This document shows positions 13,879 to 28,791 of a DNA stretch of 32,000 nucleotides, one piece after another (the first letter of the stretch is position 1; each line of letters opens with the position of its first letter). Under the pieces are notes generated by a model. It ran no database searches, was not told the origin of the DNA, and saw only the letters and a program-made list of their open reading frames with translations. Both the position numbers and the translations under genes were made by a program. This stretch comes from Candidatus Saccharimonadota bacterium. GTDB lineage: Bacteria > Patescibacteriota > Microgenomatia > UBA1406 > GWC2-37-13. The stretch is taken from assembly GCA_016700135.1 (NCBI GenBank), contig CP065004.1, positions 330,001 through 362,000 of the forward strand, given 5' to 3'.

Positions 13879-14059
13879 ATGTAAATTAATTTTCCCATTC
13901 TTTACATTATAGCGGGTGATTTCTTGTTATTTAGGTTTTGAAATAAAAAAGAGTTGGCTCGAACGATGGTATGTTTTCAGAAGAACAGACTGGGCAACTG
14001 AGCTGGAATACCCTGAATTTACCAACAAGGAAGTCAACCGTTTTCTTAACTTCTAAGCC

Positions 14060-14617
14060 TTACTCCTTACAGCAATCAATCGCTTTTTGCACCAACTGAC
14101 CCAGCTTCTCAAAGATGCCTGTCGAACCTTTAACTGAAGGCTTTGGATCTTCGCTGACAAAAGCAACCTCTTTTGAATCGGTATGCTTTATGTCCTTGGT
14201 CTGCACTAAGCCCAGATTTAATCCCCAGAACAAGCTATAAAGCTGGTAGGACTTCTGGAACATATCCTCAGCATCACCTTTGTCACCCTTGGTAAGCGCC
14301 TTTGTGCCAACCTCCATAAAACGCATCGAGGCAGCCAGTAAGTGTTTACTGATACACCAGACCTCTCCCTCATAGTCTTTGATAATCCGCTTCAAGGTGC
14401 TTTTTCGCATCTCTCGAATCTCGTTTAAAAGATCAAGATATTTAGGATCTTTGGTTTTGTTGTAGGAAAAGAAGAAATGCTCCTCCATTGAAATTAGGTT
14501 CATAATACCAATAGAAAGATCTTCGTCTGATGAAAGATCGAGTTTTTCTCCCCTCTCCATCTTTTTAACCTTGTCCATAAACTCGTTAATGTCAGGCTGA
14601 ATTTGTTTGTTTTTCAT
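14060..14617 (-). CDS. hypothetical protein with C-terminal CC pair (last gene of the ArsR operon)
   Basis: The ATG at 14615-14617 is preceded by AGGAGGTGA, directly after the upstream stop codon. The protein ends ...KAIDCCKE. Confidence 0.6.
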   Translation of the reverse strand: MKNKQIQPDINEFMDKVKKMERGEKLDLSSDEDLSIGIMNLISMEEHFFFSYNKTKDPKYLDLLNEIREMRKSTLKRIIKDYEGEVWCISKHLLAASMRFMEVGTKALTKGDKGDAEDMFQKSYQLYSLFWGLNLGLVQTKDIKHTDSKEVAFVSEDPKPSVKGSTGIFEKLGQLVQKAIDCCKE

Positions 14618-14630
14618 AGTTTCACCTCCT

Positions 14631-15140
14631 TTAACTGGTAATAAGATAAAAGACAAAACTGGCAAGCGACAAGAGAAACACTGGGATAATCACTTTTTGA
14701 TAGTAAACATACACCTTGCCACCATTAGTTGTTCTCAGCCACTTATCCAGCCAGACACCGCCAAGAAAAATAACTGAGCCAATCACTGTTCCCAGTAACA
14801 CCTTATCAACTCCCCATAAGGTGTTGCCAGGAAGACCAATCATCTTGCTCCAATACAAGGGCGGTATGACAAACAAAAAGAATAGCCCAACAGAAACTGC
14901 CTCTTTATATGGCACTTTCCACCCTTTCTTACCAATCCAATCAGCAAGCCATAAACCGCTGGATAGAATCAGCCCGCCAACCCAAATACCCGTCACACTA
15001 TCATCAATACCAATCCAGCGAGAAATACCAAGTCCCGCTCCTACCGCTACCGTGCAGACAGGACAGACCGCATGAGCCTGCGTAACTGTCATCAGGAAAG
15101 CTATGAGCATGGCAAACACACTTAAAAGCAGTTTCATCAT
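14631..15140 (-). CDS. polytopic membrane protein with signal peptide and CPVC motif
   Basis: MMKLLLSVFAMLIAFLMTVTQAHA is followed by VCPVCTVAVG and then about 4 TM segments. An AAGGAGG SD lies upstream. Confidence 0.65.
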   Translation of the reverse strand: MMKLLLSVFAMLIAFLMTVTQAHAVCPVCTVAVGAGLGISRWIGIDDSVTGIWVGGLILSSGLWLADWIGKKGWKVPYKEAVSVGLFFLFVIPPLYWSKMIGLPGNTLWGVDKVLLGTVIGSVIFLGGVWLDKWLRTTNGGKVYVYYQKVIIPVFLLSLASFVFYLITS

Positions 15141-15604
15141 TCAGCCTCCTTTCCAGACTCGGTTGCCTCATTACTGCCAGACAAACCAGCTTTATCGCTT
15201 AAATAGCCAACAATATCAGGCGTGCCAATAAGACACTTGCCTTCAGGAGTAAAAAGAAACGGCACACCGATTGAAGAGGTGTCCAGACCGCAGCTTTCTG
15301 CCGCTTGGGACAACTCCAGAGAATTGGCTCGGTTGTCATACACTTCTTTTTTAACAACTTCAATTTTCTCTTCAATCTTATTCTCCTGCATCCATTTCTC
15401 AACATCGGCGCAGTGCGGGCAGGTATTACCATAGAAGAAAATAGGCATTTGGATGCTGAGAGCGGGAGTCGCTGAAGAAGCAGCCCCTGAAGGCTGCTGT
15501 GTGGCTTGTGTGTCAGCTTTTCTGCCCTTACTACCTAAAACCACTGCAGTAAGCAGACCAACGATAACCAGGATGATAGCGATAGTAAAAATAGCTTGTT
15601 TCAT
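15137..15604 (-). CDS. membrane-anchored glutaredoxin/thioredoxin-like protein (CPHC)
   Basis: It has an N-terminal TM anchor, a linker, then IFFYGNTCPHCADVEKW, a Grx/Trx-fold active site. Confidence 0.7.
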   Translation of the reverse strand: MKQAIFTIAIILVIVGLLTAVVLGSKGRKADTQATQQPSGAASSATPALSIQMPIFFYGNTCPHCADVEKWMQENKIEEKIEVVKKEVYDNRANSLELSQAAESCGLDTSSIGVPFLFTPEGKCLIGTPDIVGYLSDKAGLSGSNEATESGKEAE

Positions 15605-15606
15605 AC

Positions 15607-16587
15607 TTATAAAATCCAGTTAAATAAATAACCCATGACCATAATGCCGATGATTGTAATTCCGAAAAATAAAGTCAATAGTTCCCATTTCATGACTTTT
15701 TTTAAAATCATCGCTTGAGGGATAGAAACAGTCACAATCGCCGTCATAAAAGCCAGCGCTGTTCCCAGAGGCACACCCTTAAGGACTAAAGCCTCCATTA
15801 CAGGAATAACACTAACCGAATTAGCATACAAAGGAGACCCAAAAAGTGTTGCTAAAGGAACTGTCCACCAAGTTTCGACTGCCAAGTATTGTTCCACCAG
15901 ATGGGCAGGGACGAAACCATGAATCAAAGCTCCGATACCAACCCCCAAGACCACATAAGGAAACACTTCTTTGGTAATTGCCATGCCGTCTTTCCAAAAA
16001 TAACCCAGGAGTTCTTTGGGGGGTAATGCCAATCCTCCATGTTCTTCCTCGACTTGTTTTCTGGATTTAAACTTCAATAGTTCTTGTTTGACATATTTTT
16101 CAACTCGCAACCGATGAACTAACATTCCTCCCAGAACTGCCACAGCAATACCAACCAGGTTATATAAAACAGTTACCTTCATACCAAACATTGCAGGAAA
16201 CAGATATAAAGAGGACTCATTAACCAGTGGAGAGCTGATCAGGAAGGCAAAAGTCACCCCCAAAGGGATTCCTGCACCCACAAAGCCAATAAAAAGCGGT
16301 ATAGAAGAGCAGGAGCAAAACGGAGTGATAACACCCAGTGCGGCAGCAAATAGATAATCCAACCCAAACCAGCGTCTTTTGGTAAGCATATCCCGCACTT
16401 TCTCCATCGGGAAATAGTAGCGGGTAATCGCCATGAAGTAGTTGATAACCACCAAAAGCAATCCGATTTTTAGAACATCATAAATGAAGAAATTGACAGC
16501 ACTGCCCAAATAAGACTGCCTGCCTAAATTGAGCCACCCGTAGGTGGCAAGATCAGCAAAAAGTTGTAAGGGTCTAAAAATATCCAT
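15607..16587 (-). CDS. ArsP-like permease (DUF318 family)
   Basis: 326 aa and polytopic. The ITPFCSCSSIP motif matches the vicinal Cys pair described for the ArsP organoarsenical efflux permease. It sits in the usual arsR / Trx-like / permease context. Confidence 0.8.
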   Translation of the reverse strand: MDIFRPLQLFADLATYGWLNLGRQSYLGSAVNFFIYDVLKIGLLLVVINYFMAITRYYFPMEKVRDMLTKRRWFGLDYLFAAALGVITPFCSCSSIPLFIGFVGAGIPLGVTFAFLISSPLVNESSLYLFPAMFGMKVTVLYNLVGIAVAVLGGMLVHRLRVEKYVKQELLKFKSRKQVEEEHGGLALPPKELLGYFWKDGMAITKEVFPYVVLGVGIGALIHGFVPAHLVEQYLAVETWWTVPLATLFGSPLYANSVSVIPVMEALVLKGVPLGTALAFMTAIVTVSIPQAMILKKVMKWELLTLFFGITIIGIMVMGYLFNWIL

Positions 16588-16590
16588 AAA

Positions 16591-16833
16591 TTACTTCTGC
16601 GCCTCCTTAAGAAGACTCTTAACTTTCTCTACATCGGGTAAGAAACCAACCATGACAGGCTTTCCGTCAACGGCAAGAACAGGGCTGGACATTACTCCCA
16701 TTTCAATGATCTTTGAGACATCGGTAATATACTCAACCTCCTCGTTAAGATTGAGCTCTTTGACCGCTTGCTGAGTTAGTTCATACAGCTTCTTGCAAGT
16801 AGGACAGCCTGAACCTAAGACTTGGATTTTCAT
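16591..16833 (-). CDS. thioredoxin-family redox-active disulfide protein 2 type (CPTC)
   Basis: 80 aa. MKIQVLGSGCPTCKKL...SPVLAVDGK is the classic small thioredoxin-like partner of DUF318 permeases. Confidence 0.8.
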   Translation of the reverse strand: MKIQVLGSGCPTCKKLYELTQQAVKELNLNEEVEYITDVSKIIEMGVMSSPVLAVDGKPVMVGFLPDVEKVKSLLKEAQK

Positions 16834-17153
16834 AAAGCCACCCCCTTTTCAGAAATCTTAAATAACAAATTGGTAATCTGCTTGCCTTTATCGGTAAGCG
16901 AGTAATACACCCGCAAACCCTGCTTGTTGTCCGTAACAACACCAGCATCCTTTAAATCCTTGAGGTGATGGGAAATCAGGCTCTGGGACATATCTACATG
17001 CTCCATCAGCTCACACACACAATGCTCCCCTCGGCGAAGAATGCACAAGAGCTTTAAACGGCTTTCCTCGGACACCAACTTAAGAAGTGAGGATAACGAC
17101 TCGACTTGTTTTGATTCCTTACTTGATGGTGAGCAACAACTGTATGAACCCAT
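16830..17153 (-). CDS. arsR: ArsR/SmtB-family metalloregulator (As(III)-type CVC site)
   Basis: It has the HCVCELMEHV...SQSLISHHLKDLKDAGVV winged HTH. The track's TTG start (17189) is part of a -35 hexamer. I prefer ATG 17151-17153 (or 17157-17159), and the transcript may be leaderless. Confidence 0.85.
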   Translation of the reverse strand: MGSYSCCSPSSKESKQVESLSSLLKLVSEESRLKLLCILRRGEHCVCELMEHVDMSQSLISHHLKDLKDAGVVTDNKQGLRVYYSLTDKGKQITNLLFKISEKGVAL

Positions 17154-17155
17154 GT

Positions 17156-17189
17156 TCATATTATATGAAAGCAGTTGATGAAAAGTCAA
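17156..17189 (-). promoter_or_regulatory. arsR promoter TTGACT-N18-TATAAT with operator palindrome over the -10
   Basis: On the minus strand the -35 is at 17184-17189 and the -10 at 17160-17165. The inverted repeat TCATAT-N-ATATGA (17156-17168) encloses the -10. Confidence 0.55.
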
Positions 17190-17252
17190 CGGGAAAGAAT
17201 CAAGAAACCCTATTACTTTTTCTCCTTAGTTTTAGTATACTTTTGTTGAGGT

Positions 17253-17438
17253 ATGCCGAAGAAAAACACGACATTGCCAAAGTTGCTAACAATAAAACAG
17301 GCTTCAGAGATCCTGAATGTGCATGTGGAGACTTTAAGGCGTTGGGACAAGCGCGGGAAACTCAAAGCCATAAGGGTAAACGAGCGAGGAGACAGGCGCT
17401 ATCGACCAGAAGACATAGAAAAATTAATGAAAATATAA
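17253..17438 (+). CDS. excisionase/MerR-type HTH DNA-binding protein (61 aa)
   Basis: LLTIKQASEILNVHVETLRRWDKRGKL is the HTH_17/excisionase signature. Its stop lies 1 nt before the res start. Confidence 0.7.
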   Translation: MPKKNTTLPKLLTIKQASEILNVHVETLRRWDKRGKLKAIRVNERGDRRYRPEDIEKLMKI

Positions 17439-17439
17439 T

Positions 17440-20022
17440 ATGAGCAACTTATATCAACAATTAAAATCAGATGTAATTAACTGGAGACAGCAGGGTTATC
17501 CCTCCTCCTACCCTGTTATTGCAACCATCCTAAACTTCAATAAAAATAATTTTCTAAGACAAGCACAATTTGAGGCACTCGAAACTTACTGGTATTTGCG
17601 ACTGGTTAAAAACACCCCCAATATCTTCGAGCTTTATAAAGAATACTTCCAAGGCAAGGATCTCCTGAAAGCTCTTGGAATTTCTCTGTCAGAGGAGGAT
17701 CTGACCGATTTGTTGCTAGCTGGAGGCGGAATAGATGCAATCTTCGAAAAGGTAAAAACTGATAATGTCTTCGTTAAGAAGTATAAGCTTGAAGCTTTAA
17801 GAGAAACCCTCACCCTTCCATACCCAAGCTACATCTTGGCTTTGGCAATGGGAGCAGGAAAAACAATCCTTATTGCCTCCATCATTGCCACTGAGTTTGC
17901 AATGGCTCTAGAGTATCAAGAGAAAGACGGTATTTTTGTCAGAAACGCTCTGGTATTTGCGCCAGGCAAGACCATCCTTGGAGCATTGAAGGAAATTGCC
18001 GATACTCCATACGACAAGATCCTGCCTGCACGCTTCTACAAATCATTTGTAACCAATGTGAAGTTTACCTATACCAGGGATGGCGAAAAGGACATTCCCG
18101 TCATTCGAGGCAGTTCCTTTAATGTTATCGTCACCAACACCGAGAAAATCAGACTACAAAAAAACAGTATTCCCAAGTCATTTCTCGGCACACAACTGAG
18201 CCTAGGATTAGAAGAAGCCAAAGAGCTGGTTGCCAATCTGCGCTTACAATCAATCACCTCCTTGCCTCACTTAGCCGTCTTTTCAGACGAAGCGCATCAC
18301 ACCTACGGACAAGCATTAGCAGAGGATCTCAAGCGGGTGCGCCAGACCATTAACTACATCAGTGAAAAAACCAATCTTCTGGCAGTTGTTAACACCACAG
18401 GCACGCCTTACTTCCAAAGACAGCTCCTGCGAGATGTTATTTACTGGTATGGACTCTCCCAGGGCATTGAGGATGGCATTCTCAAGGAAGTCCGAGGCAA
18501 CATTGTTGCTTACAAAGAGGTTTCAGAGGAAGACTTTGTTATCGATATCGTCAAAGACTTCTTTCAGGAATACAAAGATGTTCGAGTCAATAACGGCGAA
18601 TACGCAAAACTGGCAATCTACTTCCCTCAGGTTGATGACCTAGACCAGGCTAAACCAATCGTTGAGCAAACGCTCATCTCTCTGAAACTAGATCCATCAG
18701 TTGTCTTACCAGTCCACAATAAATCACCAGAAGACATCAAAGACCTCTTTGACAACCGCATCAACGACCCGCACCTGCCTTACAGGGTGTTCTTGCTAGT
18801 CAACAAAGGCACTGAAGGGTGGAACTGTTTGTCCTTATTTGCCACCGCACTTGCAAGGAAACTCTCTTCCAGCAATAACTTTGTGCTTCAGGCAGCCAGC
18901 AGGTGCTTGAGGCAGGTCAATGGCAATACCAAGAAAGCCAAGATTTATCTCTCCAAAGCCAATGTCTCAGTGCTCGACCGCCAGCTTCAGGAAACCTTTG
19001 GTGAGGGCTTGGATGACCTCAATCGAGCCAAGACCGATACTTACCCAGTTAAGATTACTCTCAAAAAACTAGAAATCGAACCAGTTATCATCAAGAAGCT
19101 TATCCAAAAGATCGTCCCAGAAAACGATGCATCTACCACCTTGAAGGTGGAGAAGCCCAAATCTGACGCCGTAGAGGGGCTTGAGAAGACTGTTTACACC
19201 ATGTCCAAAACCCAGAGGAAAGGCGTCCTGGTTGAGGTTGATAGCGAAAAATCAAAGCCCAGAGATGTAAAGGTTGATTTATACCAGGCAGCAGTCCTGC
19301 TTGCCCATACTTATCGCCTTGACTCTCTAGAGATTTATAAGCTCCTTGCACCTCTTTACCCAGATGGAGAGATGTCTGCTGTTGACCTAGAGCTTGTCCG
19401 TTTACAACTAGAAAAGCAAGTTATCAAATACAAAGTCACTACGGAGACAATCGAAGAAGCCCTGGCACTTATCAAGACCAAAGGCTTTGAGGAAGAAGTC
19501 GAAGACGGCAAGACCTCCTATGTTACCCACATTAGGGTCAATAAGGACAATCTAGAAAAGTATGTCTTGGATACCGACACTTATAAAAAGAAGGCGGGTC
19601 AAATGCCTTTGTTTGGTTTCCACTATGACCCTTACAACTTCGATTCAGAAGACGAACGAGCTTTCTTTGAACAAATATTGGACAAACTCGGCGAAGATCC
19701 AGATAATGTTGAGGATATTTACTTTACAGGGGCACTCACGGATAGGGAGAAAACAGACTTTGCGTTTGAATATAAAGACAATAAAGGCGACTGGCATTCA
19801 TACACACCTGATTTCTTGATCAGAAAGAAAGACGGCAAGTCGCTTATAGTCGAAGTCAAGGGTAAGCCATACAGAAACGAGGCAGCAGAAAAGGAAATGA
19901 AACAACTAGAGGCGATAAATCCTGATAAAATTAAATATGAACTCCTGCTCTTAGAGGAAGGTGAATCGGTGTTTGGTAAAGTAACGCCAGTCTTTAATTG
20001 GATTTACCAAGCCCAAAAATAA
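17440..20022 (+). CDS. res: type III restriction enzyme Res subunit (SF2 helicase plus PD-(D/E)xK nuclease)
   Basis: It has Walker A LAMGAGKT, DEAH box FSDEAHH, and the C-terminal nuclease motif YTPDF...IVEVKG. Length is 860 aa. Confidence 0.85.
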   Translation: MSNLYQQLKSDVINWRQQGYPSSYPVIATILNFNKNNFLRQAQFEALETYWYLRLVKNTPNIFELYKEYFQGKDLLKALGISLSEEDLTDLLLAGGGIDAIFEKVKTDNVFVKKYKLEALRETLTLPYPSYILALAMGAGKTILIASIIATEFAMALEYQEKDGIFVRNALVFAPGKTILGALKEIADTPYDKILPARFYKSFVTNVKFTYTRDGEKDIPVIRGSSFNVIVTNTEKIRLQKNSIPKSFLGTQLSLGLEEAKELVANLRLQSITSLPHLAVFSDEAHHTYGQALAEDLKRVRQTINYISEKTNLLAVVNTTGTPYFQRQLLRDVIYWYGLSQGIEDGILKEVRGNIVAYKEVSEEDFVIDIVKDFFQEYKDVRVNNGEYAKLAIYFPQVDDLDQAKPIVEQTLISLKLDPSVVLPVHNKSPEDIKDLFDNRINDPHLPYRVFLLVNKGTEGWNCLSLFATALARKLSSSNNFVLQAASRCLRQVNGNTKKAKIYLSKANVSVLDRQLQETFGEGLDDLNRAKTDTYPVKITLKKLEIEPVIIKKLIQKIVPENDASTTLKVEKPKSDAVEGLEKTVYTMSKTQRKGVLVEVDSEKSKPRDVKVDLYQAAVLLAHTYRLDSLEIYKLLAPLYPDGEMSAVDLELVRLQLEKQVIKYKVTTETIEEALALIKTKGFEEEVEDGKTSYVTHIRVNKDNLEKYVLDTDTYKKKAGQMPLFGFHYDPYNFDSEDERAFFEQILDKLGEDPDNVEDIYFTGALTDREKTDFAFEYKDNKGDWHSYTPDFLIRKKDGKSLIVEVKGKPYRNEAAEKEMKQLEAINPDKIKYELLLLEEGESVFGKVTPVFNWIYQAQK

Positions 20023-20024
20023 CT

Positions 20025-21809
20025 ATGACAAATGACACAAACAAAAAAATAAAAATCGGCACACCTAACGGCAGACCTATGCTAACATGGGTGAATAAAA
20101 GGCCGTTAGAATCGGTTACAGGTTATCCGACACAACTCACCGAGAGCTTTGGAGACAAAGAAGCGCTCAAAGTGCCTGAATACGGCAAGCTAGAAAAGAA
20201 CTGGCACAACCTTCTCTTTCATGGCGATAACAAAGAAGTGCTCGCCTCTCTCTTGGAGTTAGGTTTCAGAGGCAAGGTTGATCTGATTTATATCGATCCT
20301 CCCTTTGCGAGCAATAAAGATTACATGCGCAAGGTTGAGCTAAGGGGTTTGAAAAGCCTAGGGAGACTAGAAGAGGATAGTGAATCGATTATCCAACAAA
20401 CAATGTATGAAGATATTTGGAAGAGAGATGAATACTTCCAATTTATTTATGAGAGGCTAATTCTCCTCAAAGAACTGCTCGCCGAAACAGGCAGTATTTA
20501 TGTCCACCTTGATTATCGCATGGTTCACTACATCAAAGTATTACTTGACGAAATCTTTGGAGAGGATGGCTTAAAGGCTGAAATTATCTGGAACTATGAA
20601 ACAGGCGGTGTAAACAAAAATGAATATGGGAAAAAACATGACAGCATACTCTTTTACACAAAGAGCGACAAGTTCACATTCAATGCGCAAGATATTCTTG
20701 AAAAAAGAGGAGAAGAAGTATTAAGACGACTTGCTACAGGTGTCGAATCAGCAACTAGGGCTAAGAACGAATTAAGGTTGCCAACTGATGTGTGGAGAAT
20801 CCCTGCAATAAATGCAATGGCCTTGGAAAGGATGGACTATGCCACACAAAAACCAGAGGCGCTTCTAGAAAAAATTATTAAAGCTTCTTCTGATCAAGGA
20901 GATCTGGTAATGGACTGTTTTATTGGCTCTGGCACAACTTGTGCAGTAGCTCAAAAGCTCGCTAGACGATGGATTGGCGTCGATGTCAACAAAGGCGCTA
21001 TCCAAGTAACTAGCAAAAGATTGCAGAAGATTATCAAGGAACAACAGAAAAAACTTATTGACGGACAAATTAGTAAAGCATTGGGGATCTATAAAGTTAA
21101 CAACTATGACCTGAGAATCCTCAAGACTGAAGCCAAAGAGCTAGCAATCCAACAATATGGAATCACCAGAACAAAAACAGAGACATTCTTTGATGGTTTA
21201 AGAGATAGTGGCGAACTGGTAAAAATCATAGACTTCAATCACCCGCTCACACTTCTTGACCTGCAGCTTATCAAGGACGAACTCGATAAACGACCAGAAG
21301 AAGACAGAGATATCGTTGTAATTTGTCTAGGAAGAGAGACAAAAGTCGATTCCTGGGTTGAGGAATGGAATAAAAAACAACCTCATAAAGACGCACGCAC
21401 CAGTAAGCGCATGAGGCAGTTCGTTGTCTTTGATCTTAAGGACAAGAACTTTGTCAGCTACGAACCCTCAAAAGCTGAAGTCGAGATTACTAGAGCGGGT
21501 AAAGATAAAGATAAAGTTAAAATCAAGGTTGTCTCTTTTATCTCCCCTTCCATAATCAAACGCTTGGAACTTGAACCAGGACTACTGCAAAAAAAGATTC
21601 CAGACTTCAGATCAATGATCGATGTCGTTTTGGTAGATACAAACTATGACAACGAAGTGTTCAAGATTGGCTTCTCTGATGTCCCAGAGAAACAGAGCGA
21701 CCTGGTCAAGGGAGAATACGAGCTTGAGATAACAGAAAAACCATCCAAAGTGGCAGTCAAAATCATTGACATGTTAGGAGAAGAAGTCTTGGTTACCAAA
21801 GAAGTGTAA
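20025..21809 (+). CDS. mod: type III Mod-like beta-class amino DNA methyltransferase
   Basis: Motif IV DLIYIDPPF precedes motif I CFIGSGTTCAVAQKL. The ATG at 20025 is 2 nt after the res stop; the track's TTG start is at 19998. Confidence 0.85.
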   Translation: MTNDTNKKIKIGTPNGRPMLTWVNKRPLESVTGYPTQLTESFGDKEALKVPEYGKLEKNWHNLLFHGDNKEVLASLLELGFRGKVDLIYIDPPFASNKDYMRKVELRGLKSLGRLEEDSESIIQQTMYEDIWKRDEYFQFIYERLILLKELLAETGSIYVHLDYRMVHYIKVLLDEIFGEDGLKAEIIWNYETGGVNKNEYGKKHDSILFYTKSDKFTFNAQDILEKRGEEVLRRLATGVESATRAKNELRLPTDVWRIPAINAMALERMDYATQKPEALLEKIIKASSDQGDLVMDCFIGSGTTCAVAQKLARRWIGVDVNKGAIQVTSKRLQKIIKEQQKKLIDGQISKALGIYKVNNYDLRILKTEAKELAIQQYGITRTKTETFFDGLRDSGELVKIIDFNHPLTLLDLQLIKDELDKRPEEDRDIVVICLGRETKVDSWVEEWNKKQPHKDARTSKRMRQFVVFDLKDKNFVSYEPSKAEVEITRAGKDKDKVKIKVVSFISPSIIKRLELEPGLLQKKIPDFRSMIDVVLVDTNYDNEVFKIGFSDVPEKQSDLVKGEYELEITEKPSKVAVKIIDMLGEEVLVTKEV

Positions 21810-21814
21810 CTAAA

Positions 21815-23683
21815 CTAAGCCTTCGCTTTTTCCTCACCAGAAAACTCTTTAATTAGAACATCGAATACTTTCTTGAAGTTTTCTTTGGTATCCTTTGAAA
21901 GTTTATCTTTTACTTCAGTAGCTCTAGATAAAAACTTTTTAGCTAATAAAACTTTGTCAGCTTTGGCTTTGGTGACATACTCTGAGTTGCTGGATTTATA
22001 AGTTTTTGAGCTGTCTTCTATAACATGATTTATAAAGTCCTCTTGGGTAAACAAATCTTCTATCCGCACGCCATCGCTATCCGAAACCGCTTTGATTTGT
22101 GCTTTTTCAACTAGCCACCTTTTTGTTAGGTTTTTCTCTCCATCCTTCTTGCCCTGGTCACTATCGTAAAGGTATAGCACCTTACAACCCCAACCATGTA
22201 GGATTGTTCCCACTTTTGGCATATTTCCTGAACCGCCACCGTAAATAAAGTTTAACTGCCCATCGTCTAAGATCGTCTTAAAAGCTGTCAGGTAATACCA
22301 ATCGGAAGGCCCCTCAACCACCACATTATTGAGCTTGTCAGGATTGGTAATTCCACTCGTTATTTCAAGTCCTATTGCAGTCAAGATAGGGGTTAAGGTT
22401 TCCTTGTCCGACACTTTGTGAATCTTTGATTCAACAGTCGTCCCATCCTCTCGTCCTCTAAAAACTAAACGCACCCGATCCAATTTGTCTGGATCGAGCA
22501 AGTAAGGAGAATGTGTGGAGAAAATGACTGGCATCTTGGCTGAACGATCCTCTAAAACGCTCAGAACATCTCTTTGTGCCTTAGCATGCAAATAAAGCCC
22601 AGGTTCGTCAACCAAAAGGTAGTTTTGTGTGCCAGACTCATAATGAAGCTTGAGCTGGATATAAAAAGAGAGAAACCATTGGAAGCCCTTACTTCGTTGC
22701 TGCATGCTGAACTTTTCACTTTTACCTTCTTCAACAAAGCCAAATACCAAATTATCTCCGTCAAGCATTGCTTCAAGTTCAACCTTATCTTGATTCCAAA
22801 AATCCAAGAAATCTCCCGTAATCGTGGTCGATTTACGACTCAGGTAGTTGATGTTTTGCTGTCGTGTTCGTTCTGCGTTAAGAAGGAGGTCTAGGTCTAT
22901 CTCAGAAATTTTAGCAAAATTCAGCACCGCCTTGTTTTTCTTGGCTTCAGCTAAGGGAATTTGAAACGGCAAAAGATTTTCAAAAGAATCAAAGTAGATA
23001 AAGTTTGGGGTCGATTTGACCAGCGCGTCTGTAAACTTTCTCTCTAGATCAAGAGTTGTCTGAAGTTGTTGAGCTAACTTCACGGCTTCGGCCATATACT
23101 GAGTGGCAGTATTCCTCTGTGCCTCATCCTCGATCTTTGGCAAAAGCGGGGTTAGTTGTTGTTGAAAATCAGTTAATTGCTTTACTAGTGGCGCTGCATC
23201 ACTAAAATCCAGCTCTGGTAAAGTCAAACCAACTGCCTCATTTTTTTTCAGAACTAAAGAAACAGAAGACGCCTTTCCTTTTATGGCTTTCCTTATTTCA
23301 TTAGCTTGCCCATCTAATTTTCCATTTAGCCACTTAGATGTGTCACCATCGAGGTCATAGGTTTTAGGAAATGTCTTAGTAATCGTAAGGTCACAAGATT
23401 TTTGCTCTTTACCTTCTAGTCCGATTGCCTGCAGTAAAGGGTTTATCTCATCTGCTGATAATGTAAAGGTAATTGCGACCTGTGATACGGCCTCCTCATT
23501 AAAAATAGGTTTAGCCTCTTTTCTAATTTCCTTGTCTTTATCAAAATCTTCAACCGCCTCTAATATCGCAGTTTTCCCCGACTCATTTTTCCCAGCAAGT
23601 ATAGTAACCTTTTCCTCAAGATAGATATCTCCAGAATTCTGGACTGAACGATAGTTATTGATCCGAACCTTTTTAATTCTCAT
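21815..23683 (-). CDS. OLD-family ABC-type ATPase fused to a Toprim nuclease domain
   Basis: It has Walker A GKNESGKT, Walker B LLVDEPGLYLH and H-loop STHSPY. The C-terminal Toprim has VVVEGPSDWYYL and LYDSDQG. It is convergent with mod, with 5 nt between the stops. Confidence 0.75.
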   Translation of the reverse strand: MRIKKVRINNYRSVQNSGDIYLEEKVTILAGKNESGKTAILEAVEDFDKDKEIRKEAKPIFNEEAVSQVAITFTLSADEINPLLQAIGLEGKEQKSCDLTITKTFPKTYDLDGDTSKWLNGKLDGQANEIRKAIKGKASSVSLVLKKNEAVGLTLPELDFSDAAPLVKQLTDFQQQLTPLLPKIEDEAQRNTATQYMAEAVKLAQQLQTTLDLERKFTDALVKSTPNFIYFDSFENLLPFQIPLAEAKKNKAVLNFAKISEIDLDLLLNAERTRQQNINYLSRKSTTITGDFLDFWNQDKVELEAMLDGDNLVFGFVEEGKSEKFSMQQRSKGFQWFLSFYIQLKLHYESGTQNYLLVDEPGLYLHAKAQRDVLSVLEDRSAKMPVIFSTHSPYLLDPDKLDRVRLVFRGREDGTTVESKIHKVSDKETLTPILTAIGLEITSGITNPDKLNNVVVEGPSDWYYLTAFKTILDDGQLNFIYGGGSGNMPKVGTILHGWGCKVLYLYDSDQGKKDGEKNLTKRWLVEKAQIKAVSDSDGVRIEDLFTQEDFINHVIEDSSKTYKSSNSEYVTKAKADKVLLAKKFLSRATEVKDKLSKDTKENFKKVFDVLIKEFSGEEKAKA

Positions 23684-23698
23684 TTTAATCTTTCGCTT

Positions 23699-23725
23699 AC
23701 AAAAACTGCCCTCTACAAAGGGCAG
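23699..23725 (-). terminator. intrinsic terminator separating the 290-aa/46-aa gene pair from the OLD gene
   Basis: The minus strand reads CTGCCCT-TTGTAG-AGGGCAG followed by TTTTTG. Confidence 0.5.
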
Positions 23726-23920
23726 GTGAGCGTTGCTCTTATGTAAAGCTCAACTTAATTATACAAGAAATATGAGGAAACTGTAAGAGAACAGATGGAG
23801 CGAACACGCCCGTGACCGCGCGTAGCGGCTTGTGTGGGACTTTCGTGCCTGGGGTGGCATCAGACTACCTTAATTTAGCTTCAGAAGCCTCGTTGGAGCT
23901 GTGTTGAGGAAATTTGGGAG

Positions 23921-24061
23921 TCAATAACTGCAATCCTTGATATTCGCCCAATCAACAGGAATGCCAGAGTTAGTGAATCGGCTAATCACACAATCAGCAG
24001 TAAGCAGAAACCATACAAGAAGGATCGCCAAGATTACAAAAACCGACCACCACTTTTTCAT
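23921..24061 (-). CDS. small membrane protein (46 aa)
   Basis: The internal ATG gives MKKWWSVFVILAILLVWFLLTA.... The track ORF 23921-24106 overlaps the upstream gene. Confidence 0.35.
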   Translation of the reverse strand: MKKWWSVFVILAILLVWFLLTADCVISRFTNSGIPVDWANIKDCSY

Positions 24062-24071
24062 ACTGTTCTGA

Positions 24072-24944
24072 TTATAGCTTTTCAATATCCCAACCCTCGT
24101 TGTCATAGACCGCCACCTGACCGCCTTGGGTAACTGTTAGGCTGACCATGGGGTAACGAGTGGATTTGGTTTTGAGACACCAGACTCCTTGGTCATTTTT
24201 ATACGCCCCCTCACGAGTAGTATCAACATCACCACACTCCTCGTATTCTTTAGTGAAGGGTTTTGAGTAGTCATACCACTTTACGAAGAAGTTGCCAGGT
24301 TTTGTGCCTTCAAATTCATAAGTCATATTGGAGATATCAACGCCAAAAATATCCTTATGCTTGGTCATAAACTCTTCAGCTACCTTACGAACCTGCTCCT
24401 TGGTCGTATATCGGGGAGTATTGTCATACTCAGGCATGTTTTCAAACCAGCGCGTGCCGTCTTCTTTTGTTCCCCAACGGCGCTCTGCCTCTCCTACCTC
24501 TACGATGTAATTGGTCTTAGGGTCAATGGTAAAGGCAAATCGAGCTGCTTCATAGTGTTCTGAAGCTGGGCTGTTATAGTCCGTTCCATTATCACCAGGC
24601 TTGTTGTTAAACCTACTACAGAGGAATTCTACAGGGATATCAGACATCCCCAAAAACTCACGGATATTAGCAATAGCTTTCTCCCTCTCAGCAGCAGGAC
24701 GAGCGGTTAACAAACAGAACTTCTCACGCGCTTCTTTATACTCCTGAGAGTCTTTATTAGGGTTCGCGCTCAGGGTTACCAGGAGCGCGGCTACTTCTTT
24801 GTCTTTTACACTCTCCTGCAAAGATTGCCCTATCTTAGATTGGCTTAAAAAACGAGGAGCTAACACAACTCCCAAGATAATAAGAATAACCAGGAATAAA
24901 ACTGCAGGAATAATTCGAGATTTTGTTTTATGTTTCATTATCAT
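24072..24944 (-). CDS. membrane-anchored/secreted hypothetical protein (290 aa)
   Basis: It has an N-terminal anchor (IIPAVLFLVILIILGVVLA) and no recognisable domain. Confidence 0.6.
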   Translation of the reverse strand: MIMKHKTKSRIIPAVLFLVILIILGVVLAPRFLSQSKIGQSLQESVKDKEVAALLVTLSANPNKDSQEYKEAREKFCLLTARPAAEREKAIANIREFLGMSDIPVEFLCSRFNNKPGDNGTDYNSPASEHYEAARFAFTIDPKTNYIVEVGEAERRWGTKEDGTRWFENMPEYDNTPRYTTKEQVRKVAEEFMTKHKDIFGVDISNMTYEFEGTKPGNFFVKWYDYSKPFTKEYEECGDVDTTREGAYKNDQGVWCLKTKSTRYPMVSLTVTQGGQVAVYDNEGWDIEKL

Positions 24945-25087
24945 TTTTACCTCCTTACAGGCTAAATTAATAACTTTACCCTAGAGGTGTTGCATATTAA
25001 CTTCGCTTGGGGGAGATTGTCAAATCAATGCAAAAAGCTCCCCGCCAGGCGGTAGCTTTCGCTACCCGTAACCCTTTCGAGCTACGA

Positions 25088-25140
25088 CCCGCTACAGGTC
25101 TCCTGAACGAGGAGCTTGCTACCCTGTAGCGGGATTTTTT
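25088..25140 (+). terminator. compound hairpin plus T6 (intrinsic terminator-like) with no upstream plus-strand CDS
   Basis: The 11-bp outer stem is CCCGCTACAGG / CCTGTAGCGGG. It encloses the inner hairpin CTCCT-GAACG-AGGAG and is followed by ATTTTTT. Confidence 0.5.
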
Positions 25141-25333
25141 ATCTGCCATGCCCCATAAAGAGGTTTAGGCAATTACTCATATTCTATCAATTCCAAGGGG
25201 AATTAAAAATAACAACCAGAAACGGTCAAAAGTGGAGATAATGTAAACAAATATGAACAAAAGGTATCTTGAATTGGCACCTGGGATTTGTTTCAATGAG
25301 GATAGATAGGAAGTAAAGCCTAACGAAACGATC

Positions 25334-25393
25334 GGGGCTGTGACTTCTGAGTATACGCACTCGCGTGTATTTAGAAGTTGCAGCCCCTTTTTT
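25334..25393 (+). terminator. 25-bp-stem RNA hairpin plus T6, just upstream of the 25408 start codon
   Basis: Positions 25334-25358 pair with 25363-25387 around the loop ACTC. Five of the pairs are G-U and so work only in plus-strand RNA. TTTTTT follows at 25388-25393. Confidence 0.55.
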
Positions 25394-25407
25394 GTTGCCT
25401 AATAACT

Positions 25408-25653
25408 ATGAATACACTTAATAACGATTACTACTCAACCAGCGACCTCTCACTGGCTACCACCCTCTCTCTTTGGTGTCCCATCGAAGACATTGACCGA
25501 TCTAATCCTCGTAAGGCTTTGTTTATTTTCCAAAACACGGAAAAACTTCAGGATCTCGTCGCCGAGTATTACCGCGACGAAATCAAGGTGTCACCACAAG
25601 TCTATTTTAATCAGTTGCGCGTTGTTAAGGCGCGCTTATATGCAAACGGATAA
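25408..25653 (+). CDS. DUF5659-like small protein
   Basis: The ATG at 25408 gives MNTLNNDYYSTSDLSLATTLSLW...FIFQN.... The track's upstream start falls inside the terminator hairpin. Confidence 0.5.
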   Translation: MNTLNNDYYSTSDLSLATTLSLWCPIEDIDRSNPRKALFIFQNTEKLQDLVAEYYRDEIKVSPQVYFNQLRVVKARLYANG

Positions 25654-25655
25654 CC

Positions 25656-25811
25656 ATGATAAGTAGGAACCTATTACTAGAACTAAAACAGATCCTGGAA
25701 GAAGACTACCAGCTCAAATTGACACTCCAGGAAGTTACAGAGATTGCCATGACATTACTAGGGTTTACCGAGACTCTTATAAAAATTGAGGCAACAAAAT
25801 TATGCAAATGA
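25656..25811 (+). CDS. small hypothetical protein (51 aa), below the track threshold
   Basis: The ATG is 2 nt after the previous stop. The product is MISRNLLLELKQILEEDYQLKLTLQEVTEIAMTLLGFTETLIKIEATKLCK. Confidence 0.35.
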   Translation: MISRNLLLELKQILEEDYQLKLTLQEVTEIAMTLLGFTETLIKIEATKLCK

Positions 25812-25821
25812 GGTGAAAACC

Positions 25822-25944
25822 ATGTCTAACGAACAAGTATCTATCATCAAACAAACCAAAGAAATGCTTGAAAAGGCTTATAAGGCAGCTCTCAGTCAGG
25901 CAATAAAGAGAGGAATTGCCCAGGCAAAAAAGAGGAAACAATAA
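25822..25944 (+). CDS. small basic hypothetical protein (40 aa), below the track threshold
   Basis: A GAGGTGA SD lies 5 nt upstream of the ATG. The product is MSNEQVSIIKQTKEMLEKAYKAALSQAIKRGIAQAKKRKQ. Confidence 0.4.
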   Translation: MSNEQVSIIKQTKEMLEKAYKAALSQAIKRGIAQAKKRKQ

Positions 25945-25956
25945 AAATGACGATCA

Positions 25957-26424
25957 ATGACTATGACAAAAAACCAGCAATCAAAACAAGCTGAAGAGCT
26001 TTATATCCAGGTATGGAGAAATCCGATATTTTATGGAGGATTGTTTACCGTCCTTTCTCCTGAAGACTGGCAGACATTAACAGCCCTGGCAATGTTTATG
26101 GATCAGAACGGCGTTTGTTATCCCTCCGAGAAGAAACTAGGACAAATACTAGGCATAAAGAATACTGCCAGTGTCAGCAGAAGGATTGCCAGACTTGAAA
26201 CAAAAGAATATCAGAATGAGGTGGTTTTACTGGTTGAAAGAGGGAGAAAGACAAATGAGAAGGGAGTCTGGGTCTTCACTAACAACAAATACTACCTTAA
26301 CCCAGACATCGTCTCTATTTTTAATCCCCATCCCAAGACTCTCAGTTGTCGTGAAGAACAAATGGAGAAATTCCTTCAAATAAGGCAAAAGCTCGTTAAC
26401 TCGTTTAGCTTTAACACAAAATGA
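25957..26424 (+). CDS. winged-HTH protein (replication-initiator/regulator-like) of the mobile element
   Basis: CYPSEKKLGQILGIKNTASVSRRIARLE is the typical HTH of element-encoded Rep/DnaD-like N-terminal domains. Confidence 0.55.
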   Translation: MTMTKNQQSKQAEELYIQVWRNPIFYGGLFTVLSPEDWQTLTALAMFMDQNGVCYPSEKKLGQILGIKNTASVSRRIARLETKEYQNEVVLLVERGRKTNEKGVWVFTNNKYYLNPDIVSIFNPHPKTLSCREEQMEKFLQIRQKLVNSFSFNTK

Positions 26425-27053
26425 ATAACAAACAACATAACCAGAACCAGCTTTCTAACAAGATTTTTATAACAAAAACCAGACCCTCTTATAAGAAAAA
26501 AACGGAGGAGGTTACTCTTAAGTCATCTCGTAAGCCCAAGCCGAGCCATGTCCCAAAATCTTTTGAGGAAGTAATTCCTCAGTTAATAGGTGAATCCGAG
26601 GCTCAATATAAAAACCTTCAGCTTTATTGTGAGGCTGGCAGTCTTGTAAAACTACGCGCCAAACTTGCCGCACTAGCCAATAACAAACAAGCGCCTTTTT
26701 TTACCAGGAGAGGAGGACTACCATACCGCAGAACACTTGACCGCTGGTGTTGTAGGTTTCGCTGGGTTAAAAGGAAGGAAAAATGGACGAGGGAACAATG
26801 TAAGGAAACATACTTCTGGTTTACAGATCAAAGGCGCAACAACCCATCGTTTTTAATGGCGGTAAAGTTACGCCAAAGATACACCAAGGCTACACCAAAA
26901 AACGGCGGTGAGAATTCTCCAATACTACCCCAAAACTTCTCCAGAAACGACGGCAATGGGTCGGCAGTAGTTCGGCAGAATGACGGCAGAAATAGGACAA
27001 ATAGTGGGCAGAATAGGGATGAAATTAACAACAATTCAAAGCTAAAACTATGA
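26421..27053 (+). CDS. hypothetical basic protein (210 aa)
   Basis: Its start overlaps the upstream stop (ATGA). RTLDRWCCRFRWVKRKEKW resembles HTH tails of phage/plasmid DNA-binding proteins, but the similarity is weak. Confidence 0.5.
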   Translation: MNNKQHNQNQLSNKIFITKTRPSYKKKTEEVTLKSSRKPKPSHVPKSFEEVIPQLIGESEAQYKNLQLYCEAGSLVKLRAKLAALANNKQAPFFTRRGGLPYRRTLDRWCCRFRWVKRKEKWTREQCKETYFWFTDQRRNNPSFLMAVKLRQRYTKATPKNGGENSPILPQNFSRNDGNGSAVVRQNDGRNRTNSGQNRDEINNNSKLKL

Positions 27054-27183
27054 AAAATCTAATCTTGCAAAAAATATCACTGAAACAAAGATTCTCGTAT
27101 ATAACACACTACATACGAGAAGAAGGGCATCTCTGTTTGATATTCCCTAAAAGTTTCTTTATGTTGTGTGTTGCAAAATTACT

Positions 27184-28791
27184 ATGAAAACTGCCATATT
27201 CTGCCGTGTCAGCTCAAAAGAACAAGAGGAGACAGGCTACTCCTTACCAGCCCAGGAGAAGTTCCTCAGAGAGTATGCCGAAAAACAAGGCTTAGAGGTC
27301 GGCAGGGTATTTGCTATTTCCGAGTCGGCTGCAGGCAAAATTCAGCGAAAAACCTTCAATGAGATGCTTGAGTTTGTCAGAAAGAAAAATATCTGCTCCA
27401 TCGTCGTTGAAACCACAGACAGGCTTACCAGAAACTTCTCCGATGTGCCAACCATCGACAAGTGGATCATGGAAGACGATCAACACCAAGTCCATTTGGC
27501 GAAAGAAGGCTGTGTGTTACACAACGCCTCCCGCTCTCACGAGTGGTTCATGTGGCGGGTAAAGGTAGCGACAGCCGAGTATTATGTCCGCTTGCTCTCC
27601 GAGAATGTAAAGAAAGGACAGAAAGAAAAGCTCGCCCAGGGTTGGATACCAACCAAGCCCCCACTAGGATATAAGACTGTTGGTGAGACTGGACACAAAA
27701 TCCACATCATAGACGAAGGCTCAGCACCCCTAGTGAGGAAAATGTTTGAACTATACGCCTCTGGTGACTACTCGATAAAGAGGCTGGCGCAAACCATGTA
27801 TGACGAGGGCATGCGCTCTCCACAAGGCAATAGGCTGGTTAATAGCCGTCTCCACTCCCTCTTACGAGATCCCTTTTACATCGGTAAAATAAGATGGAAC
27901 GACGAAATTCATGAAGGTAAACACCAGCCTTTGATTAGCAAAGAGCTGTTTGATAAAGTTCAGGCACTACTTGTGAGCAAAACAACACCCAAATACAACA
28001 AACACGACTACCTTTTCAAGGGAATGATCCGCTGTGCTGAGTGCGACGGCTTAATCACCTGGGAAATGCACCGAGGGCATCATTACGGACACTGCAATCA
28101 TTATCACGCCTGCACCCAGGAAGGCTGGGTTAAAGAACCAGAGGTTGAAGAACAACTACTTTCAGGCTTTGACGGATTGAAACTTAAGAATAGCCGCATA
28201 GTCGATTGGCTCAAGAAAGCGCTCAAAGAAAGCCATCAGGACGAGATCGAATACCATAACAGCACTGTCGGCGAGCTACAAGCCCGCTACGAGGCAATTC
28301 AGAAGCGGATGGATAAGTTATACGACGATAAGCTGGATGAAAAGATTACCCCAGACTTTTATGCTAGGAAATTCAAGCAATACTCAGAGGAAAAAGACGA
28401 AGTCGCCGAATCAATGAAAAGGCACTCAACCGCCAGCACAGGCTACCTGAACCTGGGCATAAACCTCTATGAACTCTCTCAAAGAGCCAGGGAAATCTAT
28501 CTCCAAGCCAAAGCAAAAGACATGTTAGACGAGCAACGAGCCTTAATCAGACTGGTATTTGGCAAGTTGATACTTAATAACGGAAAACTCTCCTGGGAAT
28601 ACTCCAAAGCCTTCAAGATACTCTCCGAAGCGGTCAACGAGACTAATTGTTCGAAAGTGGATAAAATCGACGATTTTGAAAATGGGAAATTCGAACATCA
28701 CAAAAAGACCGATGTTGCGGGGCAAAAGGGCAATTTGTTGCCCGCTCGTCCCATCTGGCTCCCCGACGTGGATTCGAACCACGAACCTTGA
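27184..28791 (+). CDS. large serine recombinase (integrase)
   Basis: It has the catalytic N-terminus AIFCRVSSKEQ, DRLTRN, a recombinase domain and the Zn ribbon CAECDG...HCNHYHAC, followed by a coiled-coil. The last 23 codons or so run antisense through the tRNA-Asn terminator and 3' exon. Confidence 0.9.
   Translation: MKTAIFCRVSSKEQEETGYSLPAQEKFLREYAEKQGLEVGRVFAISESAAGKIQRKTFNEMLEFVRKKNICSIVVETTDRLTRNFSDVPTIDKWIMEDDQHQVHLAKEGCVLHNASRSHEWFMWRVKVATAEYYVRLLSENVKKGQKEKLAQGWIPTKPPLGYKTVGETGHKIHIIDEGSAPLVRKMFELYASGDYSIKRLAQTMYDEGMRSPQGNRLVNSRLHSLLRDPFYIGKIRWNDEIHEGKHQPLISKELFDKVQALLVSKTTPKYNKHDYLFKGMIRCAECDGLITWEMHRGHHYGHCNHYHACTQEGWVKEPEVEEQLLSGFDGLKLKNSRIVDWLKKALKESHQDEIEYHNSTVGELQARYEAIQKRMDKLYDDKLDEKITPDFYARKFKQYSEEKDEVAESMKRHSTASTGYLNLGINLYELSQRAREIYLQAKAKDMLDEQRALIRLVFGKLILNNGKLSWEYSKAFKILSEAVNETNCSKVDKIDDFENGKFEHHKKTDVAGQKGNLLPARPIWLPDVDSNHEP
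28724..28743 (-). terminator. intrinsic terminator of tRNA-Asn
   Basis: The minus strand reads GGGCAA-CAAA-TTGCCC followed by TTTTG, starting 12 nt after the encoded CCA. Confidence 0.5.

Follow-up and report, generated by a model that had tools for sequence, protein, structure and literature searches.

An integrative island at the 3' end of tRNA-Asn whose large serine recombinase gene probably carries its own attachment site

The stretch of DNA analyzed here, referred to throughout as the window, comprises 32,000 nucleotides of the Candidatus Saccharimonadota bacterium assembly GCA_016700135.1 (contig CP065004.1, positions 330,001 to 362,000), in which the gene for a large serine recombinase (LSR) runs into the host's tRNA-Asn(GUU) gene at its 3' end. 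We conclude that positions 13955-28761 very probably represent a single integrative island, inserted by its own LSR at the extreme 3' end of the tRNA gene, with the attachment site of the free element (attP) lying inside the LSR gene itself. Both junctions of the island (attL and attR) are present in the window, joining them rebuilds the recombinase gene in frame, and the same architecture is found in relatives. The island may still be able to excise, plausibly with the aid of a 61-amino-acid (aa) HTH_17 protein that it encodes. Measured from core to core (13955-60 to 28756-61), it spans 14,801 bp. A preliminary description of the window, made from the sequence letters, had proposed an LSR-driven island of ~14.8 kb at 13879-28755; the size holds and the borders were placed to within ~80 bp, but the limits shift to 13955-28761 and positions 13888-13954 are assigned to the host.

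Results

The recombinase gene ends inside a host tRNA-Asn gene

At the right end of the island, the LSR stop codon TGA (28789-91) lies beyond the tRNA 3' end (28756), an overlap of 36 nt that confirms the earlier observation of an open reading frame (ORF) entering the 3' exon of the tRNA. The attR sequence reads cgtcccatc-TGGCTC-cccgacgtggattcgaac, with the six-base core translated as W-L in the LSR frame, and DNA alignments of the junction show that homologues are identical as far as ...cgtcccatcTGGCTC and diverge at once thereafter. The integrated enzyme is a hybrid, in which residues 1-526 come from the element and the last nine (PDVDSNHEP), together with the stop codon, from antisense tRNA; its C-terminus reads ...RPIWL-PDVDSNHEP, and the TGA falls in the anticodon-stem/variable-loop region of the tRNA.

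The tRNA itself, missed by ARAGORN at default settings, is called as tRNA-Asn(gtt) at 29052..28756 when introns are allowed, with a 222-nt intron at 29018..28797, and the spliced exons are called and folded by the same program as tRNA-Asn. The intron matches the Rfam group I family (RF00028 Intron_gpI; minus strand, 28805-29028) with 90.6 bits, where the gathering score is 50, and is inserted after the second anticodon base, with borders that agree with those of group I introns (5' exon ending ...CTGT, with U; intron ending ...ACATG, with G), so that the preliminary wording "3' exon" is apt. In the related loci and metagenome contigs that we compared (L-numbers; P-numbers denote homologous proteins), the tRNA halves beside recombinases vary by host and pair with that host's own 5' half. 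In the acceptor stem, for example, the window has TCCCCGA/TCGGGGA and L002 has TCCGCGA/TCGCGGA, the changes being compensated in the 5' half, and the tRNAs adjoining recombinases score 60-67 bits against Rfam tRNA. Because these halves match each host's own 5' half, the tRNA sequence under the LSR ORF is host DNA.

A hairpin at 28728-43 had been taken for the terminator of the tRNA. The segment 28724-43 does form a 6-bp stem with a TTTT tract, but the hairpin encodes KGNLLP of the LSR on the element side of the core, was not called in a terminator scan, and is absent from the equivalent position in L002, L003, L090 and L091; a role as tRNA terminator is not supported.

The displaced recombinase tail marks the left end

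The same 6-mer recurs at the left end, where attL reads aaaaagagt-TGGCTC-gaacgatggtatgttttcagaagaac and the core is again in frame as W-L. No other site in the window combines T[GT]GCTC with TGG[GT]A[TC] at a distance of 4-9 nt further on, and the core opens a displaced LSR 3' end, comprising the P' arm and the native tail (Table 1). A profile of native tails hits 13913-14053 on the plus strand with E = 9e-4 in a search of 68,532 fragments from the six frames of the window and 86 loci, the peptide at the match being ...KKS-WLERWYVFRRTDWATELEYPEFTNKEVNRFLNF up to the stop; with one residue more (FRRT) than the D.FRT type, this tail is missed by regular-expression scans and found by the profile search. 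At the DNA level, it is 80-89% identical to the contiguous LSR-plus-tail junction of L089, and its amino acid identity amounts to 26/33 with the L089 tail and 20/33 with the attL tail of L094.

Joining the left part of attR to the right part of attL yields an unbroken 557-aa recombinase gene, whereas the reciprocal joining of attL-left to attR-right gives the tRNA followed by ACTCTTTTTTATTTC. There is no further recombinase fragment, P arm or P'-like/tail site anywhere in the window. The preliminary description had seen nothing to mark the left end and had proposed that attL might have been deleted and the island locked in place. Neither point is supported: a 6-bp core repeat and the displaced tail lie at 13955-14056, the tail is open over 31 codons, the core retains ~67 bp of flank on its left, and the neighboring insertion sequence (IS) lies outside the island. 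As reconstructed from the junctions, the segment 13888-13954 would have lain downstream of tRNA-Asn before integration; no relative carrying this flank was found.

The usual design of tRNA-targeting islands (PMC4383910) offers another account, in which attP includes an element-borne copy of the tRNA-Asn 3' part, so that the 36 nt would be element DNA and a displaced host tRNA fragment would be found at the other end. The preliminary description had set this possibility beside the fusion of the LSR gene to host DNA by integration. The left end, however, holds recombinase tail codons and no tRNA fragment even with 3 mismatches allowed; the 41-nt 3' exon has one match only in the window at <=3 mismatches, in agreement with the earlier statement that no long repeat of the tRNA 3' part occurs. 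The block of identity between the ends is 6 bp here and 4-8 bp in relatives, with GCTC common to all four two-ended elements, and the compensated stem changes described above mean that the tRNA 3' halves differ by host while pairing perfectly with their own 5' halves. Some resemblance is seen in the P' arms, which look like an antisense T arm (TGGGAT-GATTT-TAGAAC in L003 and GGGAT-AGTAC-TCGAAC in L009, compared with GGAT-TCGAAC in the tRNA). Rutherford et al. in 2013 reportedly gave a figure of 5 bp for the difference between P-type and B-type half-sites. The P' arms would amount to the antisense T arm with ~5 extra bases, which fits the different domain placement on P-type and B-type sites (PMC5499577), a likeness that is suggestive only. 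We regard an element-borne tRNA copy as extremely improbable; of the two earlier alternatives, fusion of the LSR gene to host DNA is the one that agrees with the host-matched tRNA halves and with the tail at attL.

The same split architecture in related loci

Searches at E<=1e-10 retrieve 2311 homologues of the LSR, and C-terminal classes were counted among the 120 best of these. All 120 share ...RP(I/V)(W/L)L and diverge thereafter. In ~55/120 the protein continues into an antisense-tRNA tail, xxxDSNxxP or its frame-shifted equivalent, covering the antisense acceptor and T arm; another ~30/120 stop two codons past WL or LL, and in the one such case checked in DNA (the downstream recombinase of L087) the stop is a TAG inside the tRNA T stem. 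A third class, ~25/120, bears a native-type tail, xxWDDFRTLKW...YPEL...VKELL. The preliminary description had considered that tails of the WLPDVDSNHEP type might be shared independently of tRNA context: homologues do share WLPxxDSNxxP tails, but every fused homologue whose DNA was read adjoins tRNA-Asn (L002, L018, L020, L025, L087B, L090, L092 and L094).

Relatives supply both the joined and the split state. The metagenome contig L089, found with a degenerate attP pattern, carries the joined LSR-tail sequence cgtcccatcTGGCTCgaacgatggtatgttttc contiguously, along with two remnants, one consisting of a tail alone and the other of recombinase sequence fused to tRNA-Asn, and L003 likewise has a contiguous recombinase-tail gene. 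In L094, a recombinase 74% identical to that of the window is fused to tRNA-Asn and the tail LLEKWSQFRTTDWVNYLEYPEYTTKEINRFLSL, ending in a stop, is found on the same strand at a distance of 11.2 kb upstream (E = 1.5e-5), the two ends sharing only GCTC. L087 holds two tandem elements at tRNA-Asn, with a far-left tail at E = 6e-14; its upstream recombinase reads into the left end of the next element and its downstream one into the tRNA, an arrangement that explains why native-type tails appear on long chromosomal contigs. A member of another LSR clade, 27% identical, ends ...SGLPDEDSNLEP and a stop in the same tRNA in L009 (UBA1450), where the ends share GCTCCCCG and the tail LPVWDSTRTERWIEDFIK lies ~7.4 kb away. 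In each of the four elements the displaced tail retains an open frame, and its stop comes after a similar length. The architecture in which the gene is split by its own attP is thus, as read from these sequences, a recurrent one.

The tRNA-Asn end also appears as a hot spot of tandem gain and later decay. Besides the two complete elements of L087 (1006-18645), arrays occupy the whole L089 contig, L027 (11968-16301) and L008 (1706-4255), with several tail-only remnants in L089 and L027 and recombinase-end remnants in L089 and L008. It follows from the tandem insertions that attL or attR, each a hybrid site, can act as a target, which is unusual for large serine integrases. A separate observation concerns L091 (11573-11680), where a recombinase 86% identical to that of the window runs from TGGCTCCC into NPSFNINDSIKRLIDIVEEIG..., neither tRNA nor native tail, with thymidylate-kinase/methyltransferase and GreA genes downstream; P0048 has the same tail, which may reflect a second target or a rearrangement.

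These arrays also bear on a composite origin, in which the LSR-proximal part would be the current element, the tail remnant and the ArsR operon next to it would stem from an older tandem element whose inner junction is lost, and attL and attR would not be partners. Tandem and decayed elements at tRNA-Asn (L087, L089, L027, L008) provide the setting for such a history. L089 has the same tail type on a recombinase remnant with a different C-terminal region, the nearest native-tail homologues (80-88% identity) bear shorter, different tails, and ArsR-Trx-ArsP gene sets stand near tRNA-Asn without a recombinase in L048 and L063. Yet the window shows no internal recombinase remnant, P arm or second tail between 14 and 27 kb, the attL of L094, whose recombinase is of the same clade (74% identity), bears a tail of this type too, and in L003 an ArsR-Trx-ArsP set lies downstream of a recombinase with a native tail. 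On balance we consider a composite unlikely. The loci L048 and L063 had also made the ArsR operon a candidate for host DNA, a proposal dropped after attL was found to the left of the operon and the matching set was seen in L003.

Proposed cycle of integration and excision

In the single-island reading that we favor, attP would lie within the LSR gene, 31 codons ahead of its natural stop, spanning the RPIWL codons and the first tail codons, and the free element would make a 557-aa integrase. Strand exchange would take place in the short core (TGGCTC here, GCTC family-wide), the complement of the last acceptor bases, the discriminator and C74. The gene body and P arm would remain at attR, reading into antisense tRNA until the TGA, and the natural tail ERWYVFRRTDWATELEYPEFTNKEVNRFLNF with its stop would move to attL at the far end of the island. 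With attP inside the LSR gene, integration would split that gene, the LSR losing 31 residues and gaining 9; since only the core is shared between the ends, the tRNA would stay intact. Excision would rebuild the 557-aa gene and restore the original tRNA flank, with a predicted circle junction CGTCCCATCTGGCTCGAACGATGG and a predicted empty site AAAAGAGTTGGCTCCCCGACGTGG, and would plausibly need the HTH_17 protein. Among serine integrases, that of phiRv1 is known to have an Xis-like helper. By comparison of all four end pairs, the crossover dinucleotide must lie within their common GCTC.

Several points weigh against this reading. No genome with this exact empty site was found among relatives. 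Of the candidates, L007 (95% nucleotide identity) ends 47 bp past the tRNA in unrelated sequence, and L008 proved to hold a decayed element, in which a C-terminal recombinase remnant of 100 aa is fused to the tRNA (E = 9e-8); a possible tail-like fragment in L008 is not significant (E = 1.2). Exact scans gave no match for the attB of this element in metagenome contigs or for its attP circle junction in viral contigs, and a degenerate circle pattern likewise gave none in viral contigs. The core shows only weak dyad symmetry, with 8/16 matches in the window and 10/16 in L003; 36/500 shuffles reach the L003 value, so that the symmetry is not significant and does not fix the crossover dinucleotide. 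Finally, the tandem and decayed arrays of L087, L089 and L027 mean that the left-end tail could in principle be that of an older element.

The recombinase and its hybrid C-terminus

The Resolvase, Recombinase and zinc-ribbon domains of the protein bear out its preliminary identification as an LSR. The catalytic domain PF00239 covers residues 10-159 (E = 1.2e-19) and includes the motif CRVSSKEQ, PF07508 (Recombinase) is matched at E = 1.7e-17, and the zinc ribbon PF13408 (Zn_ribbon_recom) scores 22.4 bits, slightly below the 25.3-bit cut-off. R8 and S10 are invariant across 83 homologues, as are four cysteine columns of the LSR alignment (C284, C287, C304 and C310). A coiled-coil insertion is seen in the AlphaFold2 model of P0067, a homologue with a native tail rather than the window LSR, as long helices at 337-441 between the beta-strand region of the zinc-binding cysteines and a later beta-hairpin. 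The nearest solved structures are only the catalytic domains of TP901-1 (E = 3.6e-7) and TnpX, and identity to any phage record stays below 30%. Judged by its sequence, the enzyme is a bona fide, very divergent LSR.

Whether the exchange of C-termini matters to the enzyme is a question apart from how the island was inserted. The run-on into the tRNA may be an accident without meaning or functional consequence, the tail being dispensable and its conservation a constraint on attachment-arm DNA. Some of the codons double as attachment-arm DNA and would be constrained as such, namely the first ~9 of the tail (xxWDDFRT), which share sequence with the P' arm, and RPIW, which does so with the P arm; moreover, ~70% of the database homologues, counted among the 120 best, are intact genes without the native tail. 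Conservation, however, reaches >30 bp past the core, with the pattern W..(I/L/V)(E/D)YPE(L/F)...(E/Q)(V/I)..(F/L)L kept among homologues of the aligned set that are ~50-60% identical. The four displaced tails, moreover, have all kept their open frame and similar length, and the P0067 model places tail helices at 501-538 (pLDDT, predicted local distance difference test, ~70-78) after a disordered linker at 488-500. We give this explanation about an even chance. It is doubtful, if conceivable, that the tail swap is a built-in switch, with a conserved helical C-terminal mini-domain made only in the free element and lost on integration; were this so, the integrated enzyme would differ from the free form in directionality, stability or partner binding.

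Content and modular organization of the island

The cargo listed in the preliminary description, namely the ArsR operon, the type III restriction-modification (RM) genes, the OLD nuclease and a helix-turn-helix (HTH) module, is confirmed by Pfam, PADLOC and PHROGs, and the IS beside the island is assigned to the IS1595 family by its transposase domain and inverted repeats (Table 1). The ArsR-Trx-ArsP set resembles that of L003, where it follows the recombinase bearing a native tail. The 61-aa protein also matches PHROG 66 (excisionase and regulator, 1.3e-10), HTH_17 ORFs occur in the elements of L002, L003, L087 and L094, and a similar small ORF, recognized from sequence only, stands beside the recombinase of L009; we consider this protein a candidate directionality factor or regulator. 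The island ORFs scanned yielded no Phage_integrase domain, and apart from the LSR and the IS transposase there is no recombinase within the island or next to it.

Table 1. Positions of features in the island and at its borders (window coordinates)
Feature	Position	Strand	Evidence and remarks
IS1595-family IS	13155-13887	+	transposase ORF 13200-13874; not part of the island, 67 bp separating it from the attL core to its right
Host flank, B arm of attL	13888-13954		minus strand ...GAGCCA followed by ACTCTTTTTTATTTC...; assigned from junction reconstruction
attL core TGGCTC	13955-13960	+	6-mer identical to attR
Displaced LSR 3' end (P' arm and native tail)	13955-14056	+	WL-ERWYVFRRTDWATELEYPEFTNKEVNRFLNF-stop, 31 codons and stop, in frame with the WL of attR
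Cargo operon	14060-17189	-	Pfam, PHROGs
Two proteins without family match	14060-14665, 14631-15140	-	cargo operon
Thioredoxin-like protein	15137-15604	-	cargo operon
ArsP_1 permease	15607-16587	-	cargo operon
Thioredoxin_3	16591-16833	-	cargo operon
ArsR regulator	16830-17189	-	cargo operon
61-aa MerR/HTH_17 excisionase-like protein	17253-17438	+	MerR_1 8.8e-14, HTH_17 5.1e-12 (Pfam)
Type III RM, res and mod	17440-20022 (res), 19998-21809 (mod)	+	Pfam ResIII, N6_N4_Mtase
OLD-family ATPase-nuclease, defence cargo	21815-23683	-	Pfam AAA_15; PADLOC Old 1.9e-27, with AriA and GajA matches
290-aa conserved element protein, no family match	24072-24944	-	homologues at the same relative place in L002, L018, L020, L090, L091
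LOOT RNA, structured	25051-25171	-	Rfam RF03000, 79.4 bits
DUF5659 protein	25378-25653	+	Pfam; upstream module
HTH_36 DNA-binding protein	25957-26424	+	Pfam; PHROG 12720 (DNA-binding protein) 1.7e-17
210-aa protein	26421-27053	+	weak small-terminase-like PHROG match, 2e-4
LSR ORF	27184-28791	+	535 aa from the conserved MK start; 27166-28791, 541 aa, from GTG
attR core TGGCTC	28756-28761	+	complement of tRNA G71-A76: last two acceptor-stem bases, discriminator, CCA
Host tRNA-Asn(GUU)	29052-28756	-	5' exon 29052-29019, intron 29018-28797, 3' exon 28796-28756

PADLOC assigns the RM genes to MTase_III (3.4e-67) and REase_III. Scanned against PHROGs, the island proteins gave no capsid or portal-type match; together with the weak small-terminase-like match of the 210-aa protein, the island might be a satellite that borrows phage packaging. 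The order DUF5659 to recombinase is kept in L002, L003, L087 and L094, with DUF5659 homologues upstream also in L090 and L093, and the layout of tail, cargo, HTH_17, RM, 290-aa protein, LOOT RNA, DUF5659, DNA-binding protein and recombinase recurs in L003, L090 and L094. Between L090 (1-8840) and window positions 17440-25653, amino acid identity reaches 94% for res, 76% for mod, 84% for the 290-aa protein and 97% for DUF5659, compared with only 68% for the recombinase; by this comparison, modules have evidently been swapped between islands.

The LOOT RNA, located in the window between the 290-aa and DUF5659 genes, recurs in LSR islands, always on the strand opposite the recombinase (L002 7005-7112, L003 7677-7790, L025 16306-16427); a literature search retrieved no functional description of it. 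A 35-nt inverted repeat, 71% complementary, pairs 24697-24731 in the 290-aa gene (FCLLTARP) with 28717-28751 in the LSR P arm (NLLPARP). We considered it as an inversion site, but FCLLTARP is conserved in the 290-aa family and the repeat is probably due to chance.

The IS at the left border has a transposase matching Pfam DDE_Tnp_IS1595 (E = 1.7e-27) and inverted repeats at 13155-13183 and 13859-13887 that are 83% complementary. Its flanking sequences differ, in line with the earlier statement that it lacks a target-site duplication, which may explain why the left flank is not syntenic with relatives. Further left, synteny with L008 breaks at ~9910: the AAA_28 gene (9377-9814) lacks the first ~28 profile positions compared with L008, and 9914-13031, with a Na/Ca exchanger and 94-aa and 559-aa proteins, has no L008 counterpart. 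The variable region exceeds the island, possibly by IS-mediated rearrangement.

Surroundings of the tRNA-Asn gene

The group I intron is polymorphic in near relatives, being absent from L008, L009 and L002 and present in L010, L012 and L090. The L007 intron (10739-11274) holds an HNH-type endonuclease-like ORF, recognized by eye from a C..C ... CANCH motif, which the window intron lacks; the latter has a 17-nt GC hairpin inserted compared with L007. Directly upstream of the tRNA, 29066-29117 on the minus strand repeats the initial ~30 nt of the 5' exon in degenerate form (TCCACGATAGCTC...GGTAGAGCAGGAA), a copy in which a palindrome replaces the D loop and within which the stop codon of a GIY-YIG ORF (29108-29359) is found. 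L007 has a short duplicated TCCCCGATAGC upstream of its tRNA, yet no GIY-YIG gene. Three GC-rich palindromes of the form TCCGCC...GGCGGA lie within 520 bp (28875-28890, 29076-29104 and 29380-29395; chance expectation 0.02), one in the intron and the other two flanking the GIY-YIG ORF, and the cluster may represent a small mobile hairpin or a cassette border. The exonuclease gene adjoining the tRNA encodes a protein 96-98% identical to those of Roizmanbacteria-type metagenome-assembled genomes, including UBA1450, and the host is accordingly placed in Candidatus Roizmanbacteria (CPR/Patescibacteria); an exact look-up of this exonuclease returned no record.

Discussion

The enzyme described here shares with the large serine integrases (A118/LI, TP901-1, phiC31, Bxb1, SPbeta SprA and TnpX) the order of its domains, in which a resolvase catalytic domain and a recombinase domain precede a zinc ribbon interrupted by long helices, as well as what appear to be short, simple sites with a very short identity block and a plausible small excision helper. 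It differs from them in its very distant sequence, in its target, a tRNA 3' end where the others use a protein gene or an intergenic site, and in the position of attP inside the integrase ORF, by which the protein changes on integration. To our knowledge, no LSR with attP inside its own ORF has been described, and our literature search, whose coverage was incomplete, returned no report of a serine integrase whose gene contains the attachment site. A model in which P-type half-sites are distinct from B-type ones is given in PMC5499577.

At tRNA 3' ends, serine recombinases have one clear precedent, the phiRSM filamentous phages, whose small resolvase/invertase-like serine recombinase integrates at the tRNA-Ser 3' end (PMC3816273). 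There too the core is the reversed tRNA 3' end and starts with TGG; the differences are the small recombinase, a 13-nt core located between genes, and the host, Ralstonia. Integrases of the archaeal SSV1 type likewise have attP in the integrase gene and a tRNA target, and the gene is split on integration and restored on excision (PMC8371274). The position of attP inside the integrase ORF is thus shared with our island, but those enzymes are tyrosine recombinases of archaeal viruses and the split inactivates their gene, whereas the exchange in our island is confined to the final 31 residues. In the mycobacteriophage BPs repressor (PMC4557955) and in phiRSS0 ORF13 (PMC3816273), attP also lies in coding sequence and the C-terminus differs between free and integrated forms; in those cases the gene affected is a repressor or regulator and integration relies on a tyrosine integrase or XerCD, in contrast to the LSR itself being altered here. 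Finally, the island resembles the Islander type in its place at a tRNA gene, its defence and resistance cargo and its tRNA-proximal integrase gene, but has neither a tyrosine integrase nor a displaced tRNA fragment. According to the Islander study, no serine recombinase was known to use a tRNA gene as its target (PMC4383910), and a few tycheposons carry LSRs (bioRxiv 10.1101/2020.12.28.424599).

The targeting of tRNA genes, treated as a preserve of tyrosine integrases (PMC4383910), is here carried out by a large serine-integrase family with 2311 homologues, and two distinct LSR clades use the same tRNA-Asn end. Island finders that seek a displaced tRNA fragment will miss such islands; the displaced recombinase tail is an alternative marker, which maps both ends to the base. 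In ~70% of the family's database proteins, counted among the 120 best, the final peptide is truncated or comes from the host, and the annotated C-termini of these proteins are therefore chimeric. Bacteria of the candidate phyla radiation (CPR) are without genetic tools, and a self-contained integrase with a ~50-bp site and a conserved tRNA end is a candidate integration vector. If the tail swap were indeed a switch, it would represent an integration-dependent control of serine integrases, besides or replacing a separate directionality factor, that would be widespread in CPR bacteria at tRNA genes, and, should it alter activity, it would offer a new way to control the direction of serine-integrase recombination.

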